DNA of 64,000 nt from Bacteroidales bacterium UBA5429 (GTDB taxonomy: Bacteria > Bacteroidota > Bacteroidia > Bacteroidales > WCHB1-69), in NCBI GenBank assembly GCA_002427605.1, contig DIRT01000023.1, positions 2,936 to 66,935 on the forward strand, read 5' to 3'. A model generated the notes under the pieces. It made no database searches and was not told where the DNA came from. It was given only the letters and a program-made list of their open reading frames with translations. Positions 5,691 to 48,460 of this stretch are shown one piece after another. Each line of letters starts with the position of its first letter. Position 1 is the first letter of the stretch. A program made the position numbers and the translations under genes.

Positions 5691-7754
5691 TTGAGATCAT
5701 TGGCATTGCATCTGGGTGAGTTCGAGGTATCAGCGAGTAGAACTGAAAAGGAGATCAGCGTTGAAAAGACCAAAATAAACGTAGCACAAAGCATTTCTGC
5801 TATTTCCGGCAATATCACAGATGTATTAAAAAGTCAGCCCTCTATTAGCATTGACGGGGAGGACAATGTTTATCTCCGTGGAAATAAAAACATTCTTCTG
5901 CTTATTGATGGTGTTCCCACTACAGTATCAGGCTTGAATTCAATTCCGGCATCGCACGTTGAAAGCATTGAAATCATCACCAACCCGGATGTAAAATATG
6001 ATGCGGAAGGAACAGGCGGTATCATCAACATCGTAACTAAAAGAGAAACCCTATCCGGAATGAGTGGTGCAGCTTCTTTAAATTATGGCATTTACAACAA
6101 AATCAATGGAGGATTGAATTTAAACTACTCTAAAGGAATTTGGGATATCGGAATAAGCTATAATGGTAAATATGAAAAAAATGATATTCAAAGTAGTTTG
6201 ATGAGAGAACTGTACGCTCAAAACCTCTTTGTTGAACAAGATATTCAATCGATACAAAGAAATTCAAATCATACACTAGGATTATTATTCAATGCAAAGC
6301 CGACAAAAAAAGATCTATTTTCTTTGAGTTTAAAATATATGTCGCCTCATTTGAATAATATTCAATCCATTACCGGACAACAATTGGAGGACACGCTGCC
6401 TGAATTTCATTTTAATAGAAAAAACAACATCACTCACTCGAGAAAAACCTTTGGAACTACGCTATCCTATAAACGAATCATTGAAAAGAACAAACACGAA
6501 CTCTCTTTTGATGCTTCATTTTCAAGAACAAAAGGTTCCAGACCTGCTGAATATCATATTGAAAACGTGCTGTTACAAAAATCTTTCGGTGGGGGAAGAC
6601 CCACTAATATGAGTATTCAGGCTGACTACATGAAATCTTTATTCAAAACCGGTAAAATAGAATTTGGCTTAAAAGGATTTTCCAGATGGAATAATTTCAA
6701 TTATTATTTTTACGATTTAGAGAGCATCTCAAGTGAATGGATTTTAAAACCTGAATTTAGTAACAACCTAGAGCATCAGGAATATATTTACTCATCATAT
6801 CTACTCTATTCTGACAGTTTATTTAAGAAAATCTATTATAAAATAGGTGCTAGAATAGAATATAACAGTTCTGAATTGATTCAAAAATCTATCCAAGATA
6901 CTGTTTATACAAAATATCTATTTCCCTTCCCCTATTTACTAATCAAATACGATATAGATAACGCCCAAAACATTGCTTTAAGCATAAATCGAAGAATAAC
7001 ACGCCCAACTTATCCTCAATTAAATCCATTTATCAACATCATTGACCAAATGACATACGAAACGGGAAATAAAAACTTGCAACCTGAAATTCTTGACAAA
7101 GTAGAGTTCAACTACTCTTTAATAAAAGAAAAGTTTCAGCTTAACAGTAACATATTTTATAGCCGTACCCAAAACTTCATTACACAAGTCTCTATGTTGA
7201 ACACACCTGAGAGATTAATACTTACGTACGTCAATGGAAAGGTACAAAACAAAATGGGAGGCGATTTGAACATCACCTATAAACTCAATAAATATCTTTC
7301 TTTAAATCCCGGATTTTCAATATTTTACACTCAATCAACCGGTCAATACAATGAAATTGATTTAAGTACTGACAACCTTGCCTGGACAGGAAATATCAAA
7401 GCAACCATTAAACCGGACAAAAAAACAGAAATTCAACTATTCTTTAATTATAACTCTCCTATTGAATTACCTCAATTCCATTTGAGCGAAATTTATTATG
7501 CAGACATTGCTGTAAAACGAACCTTTTTCAACAATAGATTTTCCGTTAGCCTTATCTTGACTGATGTTTTTAACACACGTAAATGGGAGATCAATTCAGA
7601 TAATGCTATTTACAAACTCACCAACTACAGCAAAAGCGAAACCCGGATTGTGTGGATAGGATTGACCTACAACTTCAACTCCTTCAAAGGTGGTAAATCT
7701 CAGAAAAACGGTGAAAATGACAGTGACGGAGGAATCATCAGACTTGGGCAATAA
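5691..7754 (+). CDS. TonB-dependent receptor-like outer membrane barrel, N-terminally truncated (possible pseudogene)
   Basis: Plug-like sequence starts at the ORF beginning (EVSASRTEKE..VLKSQPSISIDGEDNVYLRGNKNILLLIDGVPT). The barrel ends in the aromatic LTYNFNSF motif. The frame opens only at 5670 after a TAA, and there is no ATG, signal peptide or CarboxypepD_reg domain. Confidence 0.6.
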   Translation: MRSLALHLGEFEVSASRTEKEISVEKTKINVAQSISAISGNITDVLKSQPSISIDGEDNVYLRGNKNILLLIDGVPTTVSGLNSIPASHVESIEIITNPDVKYDAEGTGGIINIVTKRETLSGMSGAASLNYGIYNKINGGLNLNYSKGIWDIGISYNGKYEKNDIQSSLMRELYAQNLFVEQDIQSIQRNSNHTLGLLFNAKPTKKDLFSLSLKYMSPHLNNIQSITGQQLEDTLPEFHFNRKNNITHSRKTFGTTLSYKRIIEKNKHELSFDASFSRTKGSRPAEYHIENVLLQKSFGGGRPTNMSIQADYMKSLFKTGKIEFGLKGFSRWNNFNYYFYDLESISSEWILKPEFSNNLEHQEYIYSSYLLYSDSLFKKIYYKIGARIEYNSSELIQKSIQDTVYTKYLFPFPYLLIKYDIDNAQNIALSINRRITRPTYPQLNPFINIIDQMTYETGNKNLQPEILDKVEFNYSLIKEKFQLNSNIFYSRTQNFITQVSMLNTPERLILTYVNGKVQNKMGGDLNITYKLNKYLSLNPGFSIFYTQSTGQYNEIDLSTDNLAWTGNIKATIKPDKKTEIQLFFNYNSPIELPQFHLSEIYYADIAVKRTFFNNRFSVSLILTDVFNTRKWEINSDNAIYKLTNYSKSETRIVWIGLTYNFNSFKGGKSQKNGENDSDGGIIRLGQ

Positions 7755-7832
7755 ATCAACACCAAAAAGCAAGATTATTGAAATTCATAATTAACGTAAA
7801 GAAACAAATATTTTTGTACTTTTGCATTGAAA

Positions 7833-8729
7833 ATGTATTACAGAAGAAAAGTATTATTGGCTTTATTGGAATTGTTTGATGGACAACTTACTGCCAAACA
7901 GTTTCAGAAATATTTGTTCTTGTTTACCCGTAAACAAGAAACTAAATCCTTTGATTTTCTTCCGTATCTCTATGGCTGTTTTTCGTTTCAAGCTAATCAA
8001 GACATTGCAACACTCACTAAATATGGATATTGCAAAATTATCGATACAGAAAAGGGGAGATTTTATGAATTAACAAATGAGGACCATTTCCTCGATATGC
8101 TTAATCCGAGAGATAGAAAGGCACTTCTCGACGTTAAAGAACAGTTTGGCAATTTAACACAAACTGATTTAATTCGCTACACTTATCAGCAATATCCATA
8201 TTACGCAATAAAAAGTATTATTGCCAAAAATTTGCTGAATAGTGAAGAACTCTGTAAGATTGAACAAGAAAAACGACATTATATCGAAAAACATCTTTTC
8301 ACTATTGGTTATGAAGGAATATCCCTTGAAACCTATATTAACAAGTTGATTATTAATGATATCAATGTACTTTGTGATGTTCGAAAGAACGCTTATAGCC
8401 AAAAATATGGGTTTTCTAAAAAAACTCTCAAACTGGCTTGTAAAGGTGCTGATATTGAATACATTCACATTCCTGACTTAGGGATTATTTCTAACAAAAG
8501 ACAAGAATTACGTACACAAACGGACTACGACCTATTGTTTCAGGAGTACGAAAAAACAACTTTAAAAGAAAACAAAGCTGCACTTCTCATTATCCGTAAT
8601 TTATTGGATAAAGGGAAACGAGTGGCTCTAACCTGCTTCGAAAAAGATCCAAAACAATGCCACCGCACTTATGTGGCCAATGCTCTCATACAACTACCAG
8701 ATACTGACTATAAACTAACATATCTCTAA
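7833..8729 (+). CDS. Fusion protein: uncharacterised N-terminal domain (Panacea/DUF4065-like impression) + C-terminal DUF488 domain
   Basis: DUF488 signature in the C-terminal half: LFTIGYEGISLE..LCDVRKNAYSQKYGF..IEYIHIPDLG..RVALTCFEKDPKQCHRTYVA. The N-terminal half has FQKYLFLF..FLPYLYGCFSF. A TACTTTTG -7 box lies about 15 nt upstream. Confidence 0.75.
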   Translation: MYYRRKVLLALLELFDGQLTAKQFQKYLFLFTRKQETKSFDFLPYLYGCFSFQANQDIATLTKYGYCKIIDTEKGRFYELTNEDHFLDMLNPRDRKALLDVKEQFGNLTQTDLIRYTYQQYPYYAIKSIIAKNLLNSEELCKIEQEKRHYIEKHLFTIGYEGISLETYINKLIINDINVLCDVRKNAYSQKYGFSKKTLKLACKGADIEYIHIPDLGIISNKRQELRTQTDYDLLFQEYEKTTLKENKAALLIIRNLLDKGKRVALTCFEKDPKQCHRTYVANALIQLPDTDYKLTYL

Positions 8730-8733
8730 TTTC

Positions 8734-9567
8734 ATGGCTCTTACTCGTATTCTTATATCTGTAAAAACTTACCCTACACTTTCTGCCACTTACGATGAAC
8801 TAGTTTGCACAGCTGGTTTTAAAGAAGATGGTTCTTGGATTAGAATATATCCGGTTCCTTATCGAAAATTAAAATATGCCGACCAATATAAAAAGTGGCA
8901 ATGGATTGAAATAGACATTGTTCGTAACACAAAAGATTTCAGAAAAGAGAGTTATCGTCCGGCTGATTTAGACAAAGATATTATTATTGGTGAAACTATT
9001 CCTACGACAAACAATTGGATACTCCGAAAAGAAATTGCTCTTAAAAATGTTTATACCGATATGTCAACTTTGATTCAAGAAGCAAAAGACATAAATATTG
9101 GCAGGTCCTTAGCCGTACTCAGACCTAAAAAGGTTATCGATTTTATCTGGTAACCATGTGAAAGAGAATGGGACAAAAATAAACTTGACGCTATAATTGC
9201 AAAGCAATCCCAAAACAACTTATTTGACAATGAAGAAACTAAAAAAATATTCCAAATAGCAAAAAAACTACCCTATAAATTTTCTTATATTTTCACCACA
9301 GAAGATGGCAAAAAACGCGCTTTAATGGTTGAAGACTGGGAACTGGGTGCTTTATACTGGAATTGTTTGAAAAGTGCAAACGGAAATGAAGAAGTAGCTT
9401 GTCAAAAAGTGAAAGAAAAGTATTTTGACTACATGGTTAACAAATGTGATTTACATTTCTTCCTTGGAACTACACAAAAGTTTCACATGGTAGGACCCAA
9501 TCCATTTATTATAATCGGCGTTTTTTATCCCCTCAAGGAAGATAAAACACAGCTTTCTCTGTTTTAA
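8734..9567 (+). pseudogene. Conserved-looking hypothetical gene (~277 codons) interrupted by a single in-frame TAA at 9151..9153
   Basis: ORFs 8734..9153 and 9325..9567 are in the same frame (591 nt apart). The stretch between them also reads as clean protein (PCEREWDKNKLDAIIAKQSQNNLFDNEETKKIF..KKRALMVEDWELG). The gene starts 5 nt after the DUF488 gene. Confidence 0.65.
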
Positions 9568-9660
9568 AAATGGTAAATTTTCCAGAGTGGGGAAATGAAA
9601 TAAGTAAAAAGTGGTGAATGTCCTGCCCCCCATTTATTTTTAATTAAAAAGAAAGAAGGT
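9566..9660 (+). repeat. G-run/C-run intergenic element, copy A
   Basis: AAAATGGTAAATTTTCCAGAGTGGGGAAATGAAATAAGTAAAAAGTGGTGAATGTCCTGCCCCCCATTTATTTTTAATTAAAAAGAAAGAAGG. It begins at the stop codon of 8734..9567. Confidence 0.75.
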
Positions 9661-9723
9661 AGAATGATAAGGAATGAAATATGATATTGAGAAATTTTAA
9701 CGTAATTCGTAATTCGTAATTTC
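9655..9723 (+). repeat. GAAGGTAGAATGAT block followed by an (ATTCGTA)x~3 heptamer array
   Basis: GAAGGTAGAATGAT is at 9655..9668 and CGTAATTCGTAATTCGTAATTTC at 9701..9723. The region lies between G-run/C-run element copy A and the M1 peptidase promoter. Confidence 0.75.
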
Positions 9724-13380: not shown

Positions 13381-14334
13381 TTATCCCTTTAATAACTCCA
13401 ACCTAACCTCCAATAAATCAATATATTTGATCTGATTTTCGGGTGATAGAAAGGAGGATTTAATGGTTTGTTTCATTTTTTCTTCTGCCTTAATGAAGCG
13501 CTCAAAGGCGTTTGAAATCTGTTTTTCAGCTAATTGTAATTTCAAACCTAGATTAATAAAATCAGACTTGGTCAGTTTCCTTTTCTTGCCCCCAATGGTT
13601 AGTGCCATCTCTTCCTTATCTTCCGGAAGATGTAGATTTACATTCAGTAGGTCGTAAGCCGGCGACAAAACCCAATCCTGACCGGATAAAATCAAAGAGA
13701 AGTTTTTTAAATGCATGTCATTATTTCCCGTGATATAACTGAAAATCACGACTTCAAAAAGTCGAAGCAAATCGAGTAACGTATTGGATGAGTGCTCTTT
13801 GACTGCTTTTCCCACCTTTTCGACAGAGCTTTTATATTTATTTGAAGCTTCTAAAATCTGAAACATGTCCAACATGTGAATTTTCTCTCCCGTTTCCGTA
13901 CGGTCTATCCGTTTGGTTAGATAAGAAAGTTCTCCCGACTTCAATCGAATCAACGTGGATGGCACAACGGAAATACCACAAAGTTCAGCCATTCGCATAG
14001 TCAGATGTTCATTTGCAGGCATTTGAGGAAACAGTTCATTTTGAGGTTTCAAAATATAGTTTCCGCCTAAAGTACCCATTAAGGTTAGTCGTCCTTTTCC
14101 GCTATCCTCTAATACATTTTTTATAAAGCCCAAAGAGAGTTTAGGTTGCACACCGGTAACTACTACAGAATTTTCAATCACTTCTTTGGCTAACTCAGCC
14201 ATCTCTGATAAGGTGTAATCCAAAATCGGTGGTTCGGGAGTTCCAAAAAACTGAACACAACAGGAAGGATGAAAATCACCTTCTGTGTCCAACTTTTGAT
14301 AGCAATATAAACAGTTCTTACTCATTTTCTTCAT
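13381..14334 (-). CDS. HipA-family Ser/Thr kinase toxin lacking the HipA N-subdomain (HipT-like), with N-terminal Cys/His zinc-ribbon-like motif
   Basis: CLYCYQKL..FHPSCC at the N-terminus, P-loop-like TGVQPKLSLGF, and catalytic-region-like GNNDMHLKNFSLI. It overlaps the upstream HipA_N-like gene by 17 nt. Confidence 0.75.
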   Translation of the reverse strand: MKKMSKNCLYCYQKLDTEGDFHPSCCVQFFGTPEPPILDYTLSEMAELAKEVIENSVVVTGVQPKLSLGFIKNVLEDSGKGRLTLMGTLGGNYILKPQNELFPQMPANEHLTMRMAELCGISVVPSTLIRLKSGELSYLTKRIDRTETGEKIHMLDMFQILEASNKYKSSVEKVGKAVKEHSSNTLLDLLRLFEVVIFSYITGNNDMHLKNFSLILSGQDWVLSPAYDLLNVNLHLPEDKEEMALTIGGKKRKLTKSDFINLGLKLQLAEKQISNAFERFIKAEEKMKQTIKSSFLSPENQIKYIDLLEVRLELLKG

Positions 14335-14656
14335 TTATTATAATGGGAATGACACTCACAGCACCAATACAATTTTTACAACATGCCAATAGCAAGCCCA
14401 TACGATCATTCGGATTCAATTTCCAACTTTTAGAGGCGATCTCCAGCAACCAACCTTCCGGGATTAATCCTTCAAAAAAGGGGAATAACCGATTCTCTTT
14501 ATACACCTGATCCGAAACAGGCATGGAAAAGGTGATCGGTTGATTAGGAAATCGTTCGATATACTCTTTATCGTATTCAAACCAGTATTCTCCATCGTTG
14601 GTTTCCGTAATGACCCCGGCAAATTGATCCTGATAAAACACTTTTCCTTGTCTCAT
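14318..14656 (-). CDS. HipA N-terminal-subdomain-only protein (HipS-like)
   Basis: 112 aa. MRQGKVFYQDQFAGVITE..YWFEYDKEY..PFFEGLIPEGW resembles the HipA N-terminal coupling domain. It shares an ATGA overlap with the upstream HTH gene. Confidence 0.7.
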   Translation of the reverse strand: MRQGKVFYQDQFAGVITETNDGEYWFEYDKEYIERFPNQPITFSMPVSDQVYKENRLFPFFEGLIPEGWLLEIASKSWKLNPNDRMGLLLACCKNCIGAVSVIPIIINEENE

Positions 14657-14865
14657 GATTCAATCTCTTTATGGTTCACCGGTGCCAATTTATGTCCAAA
14701 CATCATCAAAACCTGATTCACTTTGACCAGACTCAAATTCTCTTTGCCTTGCTCAATTTTTCGAACAACAGTAAGCGCCACTCCTGCCCTATCAGCAAAC
14801 TCCTGCTGGGTCAAATTGGCTTCTTTCCGTTTTGTCTTAACTAAATTTGCTAAACTCAATCTCAT
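14653..14865 (-). CDS. XRE-family helix-turn-helix protein (HipB-like)
   Basis: LANLVKTKRKEANLTQQEFADRAGVALTVVRKIEQGKENLSLVKVNQVL is a classic Cro/C1 HTH. The track start at 14883 is a TTG; the ATG at 14865 is more plausible. Confidence 0.75.
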   Translation of the reverse strand: MRLSLANLVKTKRKEANLTQQEFADRAGVALTVVRKIEQGKENLSLVKVNQVLMMFGHKLAPVNHKEIES

Positions 14866-20132: not shown

Positions 20133-20230
20133 TTTTTTTCTTTTTTTTTGAAATAAAATAAAAGGGGGGCAGGATAGATTTTCCTCTTCAGTTATATCAT
20201 TTCCCCACTCTGAAATATTGTACCTTTTAA
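20133..20230 (-). repeat. G-run/C-run intergenic element, copy B
   Basis: The minus strand reads AAAAGGTACAATATTTCAGAGTGGGGAAATGATATAACTGAAGAGGAAAATCTATCCTGCCCCCCTTTTATTTTATTTCAAAAAAAAAG. It aligns with copy A along its whole length. Confidence 0.75.
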
Positions 20231-20355
20231 GAGAAATAGTGTGCAATTAAGAAATGCAAATCGGATTGTTTATCTATTGCCATCATGGTTGGTTTATTGA
20301 AAACTCCTTTAACAGTAGATTGATCATTAAACTTTTCACTCCAAATCTTGTCAAG
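20227..20355 (-). pseudogene. Decayed fragment homologous to the 3' end of the DUF488-partner gene (8734..9567)
   Basis: The minus frame reads LDKIWSEKFNDQSTVKGVFNKPTMMAIDKQSDLHFLIAHYFS*. The DNA shares GAAATG.AAATC, the DLHF codons, AGAGAAA and the immediately following element with 9440..9600. About 70 nt appear to be missing. Confidence 0.45.
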
Positions 20356-20372
20356 ATTATAAATTTTTGATT

Positions 20373-20400
20373 CCGAAATCCGAAATCCGAAATCCGAAAT
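20373..20400 (-). repeat. (ATTTCGG)x4 heptamer array, inverted relative to 20078..20091
   Basis: The plus strand shows four perfect CCGAAAT units, immediately upstream of the promoter block at 20407..20421. Confidence 0.85.
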
Positions 20401-23975: not shown

Positions 23976-24055
23976 AAAATAAGTAAAAAGTGACAAATTG
24001 TCATGATTCCCCCTTTTATTTTAATTAAAAAAAGAAAAAAAGATAAAAAAGAAGA
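23976..24055 (+). repeat. G-run/C-run intergenic element, copy D (3' two thirds only)
   Basis: AAAATAAGTAAAAAGTGACAAATTGTCATGATTCCCCCTTTTATTTTAATTAAAAAAAGAAAAAAAG aligns with the 3' part of copy A. The AGAGTGGGGAAA box is not conserved. Confidence 0.6.
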
Positions 24056-29418: not shown

Positions 29419-30038
29419 TACTCTTCCTCTTCGTTATCAAATAATGGGGTTGCAGTAAAAGAAACGCGCTCATAGTAGAACAGATCATCTTCAGTATCAC
29501 GTTTGATATATTGCTCCGGAATATTCATCCAACGGTAACGCCAGTTTACCCAACTACCTGAAACCCAGAAAGATCTTCCGGGGAACAGCATAAAGTCATT
29601 GTCGGCTAATTCGTCTGATATGTTGAGAGAATCGAGCAATGCAGGAGGTAACGAGGTAACAATATAATATGAGTAGGGATCACCCGGAACAAAAGAGGGA
29701 TGACTCTCTCCCACTTCAATCAAGAAGGCAGTATTAACAGTACAGGCGTTGCCCGGTCCACGACAAGGCACATGGGTTAAAACGCCATTAATCATGACAC
29801 AGCCGGTGCACTCCGATGCCTCATGTCCCATTTTTATAGAGGCTTGACAAATCGCTTTATTATTTTGTGTATAGCCAATAGTTTGTGCTACTGTTTGAGG
29901 TTGAGTATCCTGCACCACATTTTCGCGAGGCAGGGGTTCAGGATCTGGTGTGCAAGTCCAGAAGAAGAGAGCGATGAATATGCTCCCCCCTAATTTTATT
30001 AATAAAAAAGAAAAAAAAGACAAAAAAGATCTTTTCAT
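29418..30038 (-). CDS. Exported Cys-rich protein of unknown function
   Basis: The likely start is MKRSFLSFFSFLL. The Cys cluster is AICQASIKMGHEASECTGCVMINGVLTHVPCRGPGNACTV, and the tail is the acidic NEEEE. Its stop shares one nt with the kinase ATG (TAATG). Confidence 0.5.
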   Translation of the reverse strand: MKRSFLSFFSFLLIKLGGSIFIALFFWTCTPDPEPLPRENVVQDTQPQTVAQTIGYTQNNKAICQASIKMGHEASECTGCVMINGVLTHVPCRGPGNACTVNTAFLIEVGESHPSFVPGDPYSYYIVTSLPPALLDSLNISDELADNDFMLFPGRSFWVSGSWVNWRYRWMNIPEQYIKRDTEDDLFYYERVSFTATPLFDNEEEE

Positions 30039-48361: not shown

Positions 48362-48460
48362 TTTTCTTTCTTCTTTTTGGACTAAAAAAAAATGGGGGGC
48401 AGAAAAAGTCTCCCTTTTTAGATATTATTATTTCCCCACTCTCTAAAATCTACCTCTTTT
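48362..48460 (-). repeat. G-run/C-run intergenic element, copy C
   Basis: The minus strand reads AAAAGAGGTAGATTTTAGAGAGTGGGGAAATAATAATATCTAAAAAGGGAGACTTTTTCTGCCCCCCATTTTTTTTTAGTCCAAAAAGAAGAAAG. Confidence 0.75.

Follow-up and report, generated by a model that had tools for sequence, protein, structure and literature searches.

A DUF488-linked two-gene module listed as defence candidate PDC-M19, and a defective copy of it in a Bacteroidales genome

Introduction

Two described systems stand close to the pair of genes that concerns us here. In SocAB of Caulobacter crescentus, the toxin SocB binds the beta sliding clamp through the usual clamp-binding motif, and the antitoxin SocA gives the Panacea family its name (PMC9690074); in DarTG, a toxin-antitoxin system of type II/IV with anti-phage activity, the antitoxin DarG both binds its toxin and reverses the modification that the toxin makes to DNA (PMC8832971). 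Two more bear comparison: the PanAT pairs, and the viral NAD+/ADP-ribose systems that contain DUF4326, a domain placed in the rhodanese-phosphatase superfamily and proposed to remove phosphates from ADP-ribose derivatives (Iyer et al. 2022, PMC9503650). Our own pair, which we call A and B, lies in a window of 64,000 nucleotides (nt) from Bacteroidales bacterium UBA5429 (assembly GCA_002427605.1, contig DIRT01000023.1, positions 2,936 to 66,935 of the forward strand). Gene A encodes an N-terminal domain (the N-domain) fused to DUF488; gene B, of which an intact allele exists elsewhere, is interrupted here by a nonsense codon. The locus belongs to a mobile module of two genes that PADLOC lists as defence candidate PDC-M19 (the PDC entries are described as “unpublished candidate systems”; PMC11811056), and the copy in this genome is defective.

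How far do the likenesses go? Like SocB, which stalls replication by way of its clamp-binding motif (PMC9690074), B ends in a sequence of the clamp-binding kind, QLSLF, and A, like the Panacea-bearing SocA, matches the SocA_Panacea model, though below its threshold. No sequence relationship between B and SocB was shown, however; A has an extra domain of enzymatic type (DUF488), the Panacea match is absent from many pairs, and nothing suggests for A the part of protease adaptor that SocA plays. DarTG offers the precedent of an antitoxin made of an eraser enzyme domain and a toxin-binding domain, the top structural match of A is a chain of the Mycobacterium tuberculosis DarTG complex, and single-stranded DNA (ssDNA) is the target there and the proposed target of B. 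But DUF488 takes the place of the DarG macrodomain, B is modelled as an oligonucleotide/oligosaccharide-binding (OB) fold rather than an ADP-ribosyltransferase, and the order of domains and of genes is reversed. PanAT pairs resemble ours in that the upstream gene is small and has a Panacea-like region; it stands beside a variable partner, and such pairs are frequent in phages and in defence settings (PMC8832971), whereas here the partner, B, is constant and the N-domain is variable—the opposite of the Panacea pattern. The DUF4326 systems (PMC9503650) enter the comparison through one locus in which DUF4326 replaces DUF488 beside B; they differ in that the DUF488–B module holds no enzyme that generates ADP-ribose.

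A catalogued module and its constant core

Both proteins match their PADLOC models from end to end, and in the same order and adjacency: A matches PDC-M19A (PDLC04505) with an expectation value (E) of 3.8e-116 (residues 1-296 to profile positions 1-292 of 294), and B, its premature stop repaired, matches PDC-M19B (PDLC04508) with E 6.8e-120 (residues 1-273 to positions 1-267 of 269). What departs from the listed system is that the TAA in B leaves one of the two genes broken. In PHROGs, A falls to phrog_14939 (E 1.5e-64) and B to phrog_25907, and the function of each of these families is unassigned. A preliminary description of this DNA, made from its letters alone, could place B in no family, which is true of Pfam and NCBIfam (neither half of B has a Pfam match), but not of PADLOC and PHROGs. 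It had rightly seen that B runs in one frame from 8734 to 9567 with a lone TAA at 9151..9153, and that the protein encoded at 7833..8729 ends in a DUF488 domain: Pfam finds PF04343 at residues 165-285 (E 7e-26, 91.7 bits against a gathering threshold of 22.2). Neither family is small. Homologues of A, at about 298 amino acids (aa), number more than 7,000, and B has 7,114 at E<=1e-3 in a 90%-clustered database (2,104 clusters in a 50%-clustered library), the best 120 of which are about 272-287 aa long and contain no Pfam domain.

Do the two families travel together? Our genome set comprised 57 loci from Bacteroidota, Endomicrobia, Spirochaetia, Cloacimonadota, and Alpha- and Gammaproteobacteria, 55 of them with upstream DNA, and in all 55 a homologue of A, with both halves, ends just before B, the gaps lying mostly between -14 and +11 nt. 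The two families are strict and closely spaced neighbours across genomes, and across phyla as well, which supports in part the preliminary description, where the cassette was likened to toxin-antitoxin or anti-phage ones. Viruses behave in nearly the same way: in IMG/VR, a DUF488 gene adjoins B in 52 of 53 viral loci, and a DUF4326 gene does so in the one that is left (L087). B also occurs on 23 plasmids, 11 of them conjugative, and adjoins DUF488 in all bacterial plasmids sampled. Taken together, the B family spans Bacteroidota, Proteobacteria, Actinobacteria, Cyanobacteria, Sulfolobales, phages, and plasmids.

The partner of B takes several forms. Closer relatives of B pair with an N-domain–DUF488 fusion of about 290-340 aa, and distant ones (26-40% identity) with a bare DUF488 protein of 140-215 aa, whose gene is sometimes downstream of B or convergent with it; elsewhere, the N-domain is replaced by nothing at all, by a separate helix-turn-helix (HTH) protein, or by a ParB-HTH fusion. 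Because the form of the partner varies and many pairs have no N-domain, the conserved core of the module is DUF488 plus B, and the N-domain of A is a clade-specific accessory. A Panacea-like N-domain as the essential link to B is rejected on the same ground. In the one viral exception, L087, B is followed by a DUF4326 protein (5861..6217; Pfam E 1.7e-21). The two domains have in common a strand-Cys...Cys-His motif (LTCFE..CHR in DUF488, LACWC..CHG in DUF4326), which suggests that they may be functionally interchangeable beside B. Homology between them is another matter and is not established: hhalign aligns just the 15-residue motif, at E 0.13.

Some of these loci deserve a closer look. In temperate phages of Gordonia, B sits in the immunity region by the repressor and the integrase. 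Phage Nymphadora (L066, NC_031061.1; 4021..6409) has a trio, gp42-gp43-gp44, between cro and the integrase gene; its gp42, annotated as “HipA toxin,” is a DUF488 protein (Pfam E 2e-29; 28.7 bits, above threshold, for the model DUF488-N3a), and its gp43 is a B-family protein whose gene converges on gp42 and whose start overlaps the end of gp44, the HTH “immunity repressor.” On plasmid pBEU9E1 of Saccharolobus shibatae (L157, 1433..3358), the gene upstream of B, annotated “ParB/RepB/Spo0J,” encodes a ParB-HTH-DUF488 fusion. In L114 (4113..5797), the pair is degraded, and both genes are split.

The dependence between the two is lopsided. B depends on DUF488 near-strictly, and A depends less on B: when the N-domain was used as the query, five related prophage-like contigs (L139 to L143) came up with an intact A of 318 aa and no B. 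The orphan A of these contigs (for example L139, 3929..5561) is followed, after 75 nt, by what looks by eye like a RelE/HigB-like and HigA-like pair.

A nonsense allele beside an intact one

Gene calls give the exact 139-aa truncated B on at least 10 contigs, which come from independent samples (including ERZ724033, ERZ934801, ERR3345678, SRR30200692, and SRR8655112). Among them, a 103-kb contig in ENA matches the window at 100% over the 12.4 kb retrieved, and a second contig, of 100 kb, has a cassette identical to that of the window, its differences clustering in the downstream flank. The intact allele of 277 aa (P0001) is present in two Logan assemblies of the same run series (ERR3345674 and ERR3345701) and departs from the window at just two bases: A/G at 8890 (Lys53/Glu) and T/G at 9151 (stop/Glu; GAA>TAA). 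All close homologues of B have WEPCEREW at the site of codon 140. The TAA in B arose by a recent nonsense mutation of one base, and it segregates with an intact allele; it removes residues 140-277, clamp motif included, and leaves A untouched. That one member of the pair is inactivated, as the preliminary description had it, can now be said from at least 10 contigs and an intact allele two bases away.

A sequencing error at codon 140 is ruled out by those independent contigs and by the separate intact allele. One could still imagine an artefact of assembly or sequencing, or a recoding site, such that full-length B is made in this organism after all, and it is true that a single base separates the two alleles at this codon. 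We consider this exceedingly improbable: the same truncated product recurs across independent samples and assemblers, the 100-kb contig has the same cassette by a different downstream flank, and the GAA allele exists on its own. TAA, moreover, is not known to be reassigned in Bacteroidota.

Protein B: a modelled double OB fold with a clamp-binding type of tail

What sort of protein has been lost? The AlphaFold2 (AF2) model of B, which is a confident one (predicted local distance difference test score [pLDDT] 91.6, predicted template-modelling score 0.89), has an all-beta N-terminal barrel (residues 4-88) and then a second beta-rich unit with helical inserts. Its best Foldseek matches, at low TM-scores, are in the Protein Data Bank (PDB) tandem-OB proteins that bind ssDNA or double-stranded DNA (Teb1-AB, TEBP-alpha, the HIN domains of p202/AIM2, and POT1) and in BFVD baculovirus LEF-3, OB domains of DnaE, and ssDNA-binding proteins (SSBs). 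B, then, models as a double OB fold, which is newly noted here. No homologue of B with a solved structure was found by sequence. The one recurrent Pfam match of the B family, always below its threshold (27 bits), is DuOB (PF22557, “Dual OB-containing domain”); it is seen in 3 of 67 close and 7 of 23 distant homologues (best E 7e-4), in Gordonia gp43 at 18.6 bits, and not in B of the window type. A literature search found no functional paper on DuOB. A reading of the OB fold as a nuclease of the staphylococcal kind was considered, and it stays speculation, as no staphylococcal nuclease is among the Foldseek matches.

Sixteen columns of B are invariant down to 24% identity, and they include C25, R37, D68, R70, E72, S73, D201, W202, and E203. 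Such a set resembles an active site, or one for a ligand, more than it does the surface of a protein that passively coats DNA.

There remains the tail of B. The protein ends ...KTQLSLF, the model confidence falling at residues 271-277 (pLDDT 57) as expected of a flexible peptide, and QL[S/D]LF at a C-terminus is the consensus beta-clamp-binding motif (PMC9690074). Is this chance? Among 245 B proteins with a complete C-terminus, we sought a strict motif, Q[LIMV]x[LIMFV](F or x[FL]), in the last 10 residues, and found it in 142 (58%), as against 21 of 6,140 internal windows (0.34%) and none of 121 A proteins; this is an enrichment of about 170-fold over the internal windows. A relaxed motif is found in 195 of the 245 tails against a background of 1.2%. 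Among 125 representatives of clusters at 50% identity, the strict motif is present in 35 and the relaxed one in 82. Among the variants are the hexapeptides QLSLQF and QLTLPL; distant viral copies have QMSLF, and a Gordonia phage protein has QISLFEP. Two archaeal tails read GIDKWLQ and GIDRWL instead of QLSLF, which is suggestive of something loosely like a PCNA-interacting peptide. B appears, from its sequence, to carry a canonical tail motif of the type that binds the beta clamp (DnaN), and its predicted target is the replication fork. Neither this tail nor the OB character of B was seen in the earlier reading of the DNA.

Protein A: a DUF488 domain with an optional companion

The C-terminal half of A is the easier half to describe. 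Seven DUF488 motifs (IGYEG, DVR, GFS, YxH, GI..R, TCFE, and CHR) are invariant in 35 homologues of A and are all kept in the window, the conserved residues G159-Y-E-G162, D182-V-R184, H212, R223, T267-C-F-E270, and C276-H-R278 being present without exception. The model for the “active DUF488-N3 subclade,” DUF488-N3a (PF22751), is matched by 34 of the 35 homologues at E<=0.01 (best 1.5e-6), and A itself scores 24.5 bits, below the gathering threshold of 27. The DUF488 half also matches models of a second PADLOC candidate, PDC-M45. With its Cys/His/Arg motif set conserved, DUF488 in A is probably an enzyme domain of the rhodanese-phosphatase type, a superfamily to which we take DUF488 to belong.

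For the structure of A, we used a shallower alignment, without the divergent sequences derived from the loci. One of the five AF2 models reached a pLDDT of 90.8 and the other four 65-77, and because only one is confident, the arrangement of the domains relative to each other is uncertain. In that model, residues 1-80 form a winged helix, a helical bundle continues to about residue 145, and an alpha/beta domain occupies residues 153-297; the secondary structure of the N-domain runs H-E-H-E-E-H-E-E (helix, H; strand, E) and then into helices. The DUF488 domain has a Rossmann-like alpha/beta fold, with distant Foldseek matches to the N-domain of CbiL and to DUSP18. The top match of A in the PDB is a chain of the M. 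tuberculosis DarTG complex, 7yk3_B/D (E 1.6e-3, probability 1.0, TM-score 0.54 when normalised to the target), and the next are N-domains of tetrapyrrole methylases, winged-HTH regulators, and a dual-specificity phosphatase. We infer, from where the NCBIfam model of DarG aligns, that the 7yk3 match (to DarG) lies on the N-domain of A. No macro domain was found in A by either Pfam or NCBIfam.

The N-domain may have relatives in another quarter. The last part (positions 434-549 of 554) of a PADLOC model of Type I specificity subunits, PDLC03184, matches residues 25-132 of A (7905..8228) at E 1.4e-6, and some HsdS proteins may share a C-terminal domain related to it.

The locus and its surroundings

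The coordinates of the features are collected in Table 1. Genes A and B lie on the same strand with 4 nt between them, and the layout is the generic one of type II toxin-antitoxin loci, two small adjoining co-directional genes on mobile or accessory DNA. We start A at the ATG at 7833, and not at the TTG at 7827, because its homologues begin MYYRRK. Promoters of Bacteroides have the consensus TAnnTTTG, and the box in the table is, as read from the sequence, a possible -7 box of A; a scan for sigma-70 promoters and terminators is uninformative for this phylum.

Table 1. Positions in the window of the PDC-M19 genes, their parts, and adjoining elements
Feature	Position	Strand	Remarks
Gene A (N-domain plus DUF488; PADLOC PDC-M19A)	7833..8729	+	Intact, 298 aa
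N-domain of A, residues 1-150	7833..8282	+	Winged helix, then helical bundle; DarG-C-like, sub-threshold Panacea-like
DUF488 domain, residues 165-285	8325..8687	+	Pfam PF04343, E 7e-26; all conserved motifs intact
Gene B, 5' part, codons 1-139 and premature TAA	8734..9153	+	Keeps the first OB-like barrel (AF2 secondary structure)
Nonsense codon TAA, codon 140 of B	9151..9153	+	GAA (Glu140) in the intact allele and in close homologues (WEPCEREW)
Gene B, 3' part, codons 141-277 and natural stop	9154..9567	+	Untranslated from the B start; holds invariant D201-W202-E203 and the C-terminal tail
QLSLF codons, final five residues of B	9550..9564	+	Equals the bacterial beta-sliding-clamp-binding pentapeptide consensus QL[S/D]LF
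Repeated intergenic element of about 90 nt	9568..9657	+	Context only, outside the module; blastn and alignment of five window copies
Candidate Bacteroidota-type -7 box, TATTTTTG	7809..7816	+	Fits TAnnTTTG; lies 17 nt before the start codon of A; read from the sequence

The neighbourhood in the window is a quiet one. On one side of the pair is an open reading frame (ORF) for a TonB-dependent receptor and on the other an M1 peptidase gene, with MurB, AnmK, and a flavoprotein nearby; the immediate neighbours are housekeeping genes in a low-GC block, not a defence island. The receptor ORF (5691..7754) has a TTG start and Plug and barrel domains, with neither a signal peptide nor an N-terminal carboxypeptidase-regulatory-like domain, which fits the earlier view that it is truncated at its N-terminus. 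Receptor fragment and cassette together (5.6-9.7 kb) form a block of 30-35% GC between flanks of 40-49%, which suggests either a joint acquisition or decay in both. A three-gene module of the HipBA type (HTH_3, Couple_hipA, HipA_C) lies on the minus strand about 4 kb downstream, just before mnmE, at approximately 13381..14865 (positions from gene calls on an identical contig, L120, to which 2733 is added to give those of the window).

Elsewhere the company is livelier. A relative whose B is 87% identical has an unrelated context, in which the pair adjoins a TIR-SIR2 gene. Among the 129 ORFs nearest to the pair in other genomes, at least nine are N6-methyltransferases of Type I/IIG or MADS type and at least five are Type I specificity subunits, and PglX and DrmMI models match several; the tally is qualitative, with no matched background, and agrees with a defence-island association of the pair elsewhere, though not in the window. 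The accessory context that the preliminary description had proposed is seen in the prophages, viral contigs, plasmids, and restriction-modification (R-M) genes of other loci, the neighbours here being housekeeping ones.

Directly 3' of the B stop is an element of about 90 nt, with further copies on the minus strand at 20138..20228 and 48371..48460 and partial ones at 23977..24036 and 29962..30016 (blastn and alignment). Its pattern is AGAGTGGGGAAAT...CTGCCCCCC (a GGGG..CCCCCC pair) and then a T/A run, it is located at gene ends, and it may be a terminator or a repeat like the repetitive extragenic palindromes. The same element disposes of a claim. A decayed copy of the tail of B had been reported at 20227..20355, and a search of B against the window with tblastn finds nothing there at E<=10; the best local alignment over six frames scores 26 (“DLHF”), less than the 30 that shuffled DNA gives on average. 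The similarity is chance, and the neighbouring intergenic repeat explains the supposed copy; patchy duplication of the cassette is absent, and what repeats is the intergenic element. Tandem heptamers, 3 x CGTAATT (9701..9721) and 4 x CCGAAAT (20373..20400), stand just upstream of a box of the TAnnTTTG type (tatctttg) and the start of the next gene (the M1 peptidase and a small lipoprotein-like ORF, respectively), and may be regulatory repeats.

Discussion

What, then, might such a module do? We lean, tentatively and with rather less than even confidence, toward a conflict system of the toxin-antidote or abortive-infection type, whose logic would be that of SocAB and DarTG. B would be the harmful partner, tethered to the replisome via the sliding clamp, where it would bind ssDNA at forks and either block it or damage it chemically. 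A would be the antidote that restrains B, possibly through its DarG-C/Panacea-like N-domain where there is one, and its DUF488 domain may reverse the product of B, for instance by removing a phosphate-linked adduct or end group. B would be set free when a phage infects or when the element is lost. The strain at hand, its harmful gene knocked out, would be left with an orphan antidote gene and an inactive system. We favour such a conflict module because A can stand alone and B almost never does, because most pairs have an antitoxin-first operon layout, and because in the window it is B and not A that bears the inactivating mutation. We count with these the OB-type matches and clamp motif of B, its invariant charged residues, which resemble an active site, the DarTG and sub-threshold Panacea matches of A, and the mobile and R-M-rich settings of the pair. 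It is plausible that the silenced gene encodes the component that does harm or acts as effector, as had been supposed before the tail and fold of B were noticed. A bolder version, in which B is a new and very widespread class of replisome-directed effectors (double OB folds, docked on the clamp through QLSLF, that damage or block ssDNA at forks) with DUF488 as the dedicated eraser of that damage, we hold to be doubtful.

A good many observations weigh against the conflict module, and it is only fair to set them out together. The ties of A to known antitoxins are thin in numbers: SocA_Panacea (PF13274) matches residues 46-122 at E 3.2e-4 and 22.0 bits, under the gathering threshold of 25.7, and is matched by 8 of 35 homologues (E<=0.01), so the preliminary impression of a Panacea-type N-domain stands as to the place of the match and falls short as to its strength and breadth. 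NCBIfam DarG aligns residues 15-88 of A to DarG 183-256 at E 0.07, with 12.3 bits against a cutoff of 250, and a profile search gave no sequence-level link of A or its N-domain to any solved structure. For B, the TM-scores of the OB-fold matches are low (0.26-0.45). The N-domain is dispensable for pairing, bare-DUF488 pairs being many, and several pairs are oriented convergently, which is atypical for toxin-antitoxin operons. The ParB-HTH-DUF488 fusion of the Saccharolobus plasmid points to DNA targeting of DUF488, not to toxin binding. On the Sulfolobus plasmid pSOG2 (L158, 22937..24297), B is present with no DUF488 anywhere on the plasmid, an integrase occupying the usual DUF488 position upstream, and the statement that B is never without DUF488 is weakened to that extent (the gene after B there encodes a protein of 168 aa that, judged by eye, resembles the PD-(D/E)xK type). 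The five loci with A and no B are close relatives and may all go back to one event. In L131 (3986..5772) and L032 (5106..6840), A is frameshifted beside an intact B, although these frameshifts may be assembly errors (L032 is a nanopore metagenome-assembled genome). Our literature searches found no functional study of DUF488 and no mention of PDC-M19 in the text of any paper searched; a 2024 preprint, similarly, reports no literature on yeaO, the Escherichia coli member of DUF488.

Could the two proteins be allies rather than antagonists? To a cooperative machine without antagonism we give a substantial minority share of our belief. In it, B would be a targeting or sensing subunit, its OB folds on ssDNA and its QLSLF on the clamp, that brings DUF488 to forks, where DUF488 would act as a defence effector against replicating phage DNA or would repair or erase a lesion or adduct on ssDNA (one imposed, for example, by the DNA-modifying toxin of a competing element); loss of B would then switch the system off. 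Clamp-binding motifs are typical of repair factors (PMC9690074), and of replication proteins that do no harm; DUF488 is widespread alone and hence can act without B, and the partners of B bear varied DNA-targeting N-modules or none (winged HTH, separate HTH, ParB-HTH), archaeal ParB-DUF488-HTH fusions being known to bind CTP (bioRxiv 10.1101/2025.10.10.680097). The stand-in for DUF488 in L087, DUF4326, is proposed to process the phosphates of ADP-ribose derivatives (PMC9503650), which sits well with such a machine, and convergent pairs and ParB/HTH fusions fit cooperation better than they fit toxin and antidote. The one-way dependence of B on DUF488 is explained equally well either way. Yet the invariant acidic and basic residues of B, with an invariant Cys and Ser, exceed the conservation usual in a passive adaptor; the N-domain of A appears most similar to a toxin-binding antitoxin domain; and the operon is tight and antitoxin-first in most pairs. 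The orphan B of pSOG2 is hard for cooperation to explain, and just as awkward for the toxin model.

Nor need the module have to do with immunity. An SSB-like, clamp-binding accessory replication protein and its DUF488 partner could serve the maintenance or establishment of mobile elements, by aiding their replication or entry into a host or by countering defences, and the copy in the window would then be a decaying remnant of an integrated element. The occurrence of B on conjugative plasmids, by genes for ParB-like proteins and integrases, and in immunity or early regions of phages speaks for this, as do the BFVD matches to viral ssDNA-binding and replication proteins and the condition of the pair in the window, where it shares a low-GC block with a truncated receptor gene and has already lost one of its genes to mutation. 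We nevertheless think it improbable: most of the 57 genome loci consist of the two-gene unit alone, in varied chromosomal contexts and with no other genes of an element, the pair is often flanked by R-M genes, and PADLOC lists it as a defence candidate.

If the bolder version of the conflict module, with DUF488 as eraser, is what we have, it would give DUF488, a family that includes E. coli YeaO, its first biochemical function, and it would be a hybrid of SocAB and DarTG—an immunity or addiction module common to bacteria, archaea, phages, and plasmids. The locus in the window is an ordinary, decayed copy. What is new here is the double OB fold that B models as, the clamp-motif tail that runs through its family, and the optional nature of the N-domain of A, and the family to which B belongs is large and untouched by experiment. 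The near-absence of B without DUF488 makes the pair a genetic handle on what DUF488 does, and the clamp tail and OB folds predict a concrete target, testable as toxicity and as binding to DnaN and to ssDNA. As for a control, nature has been kind: an intact and a nonsense allele of B, two bases apart and from one sample series, are already matched.

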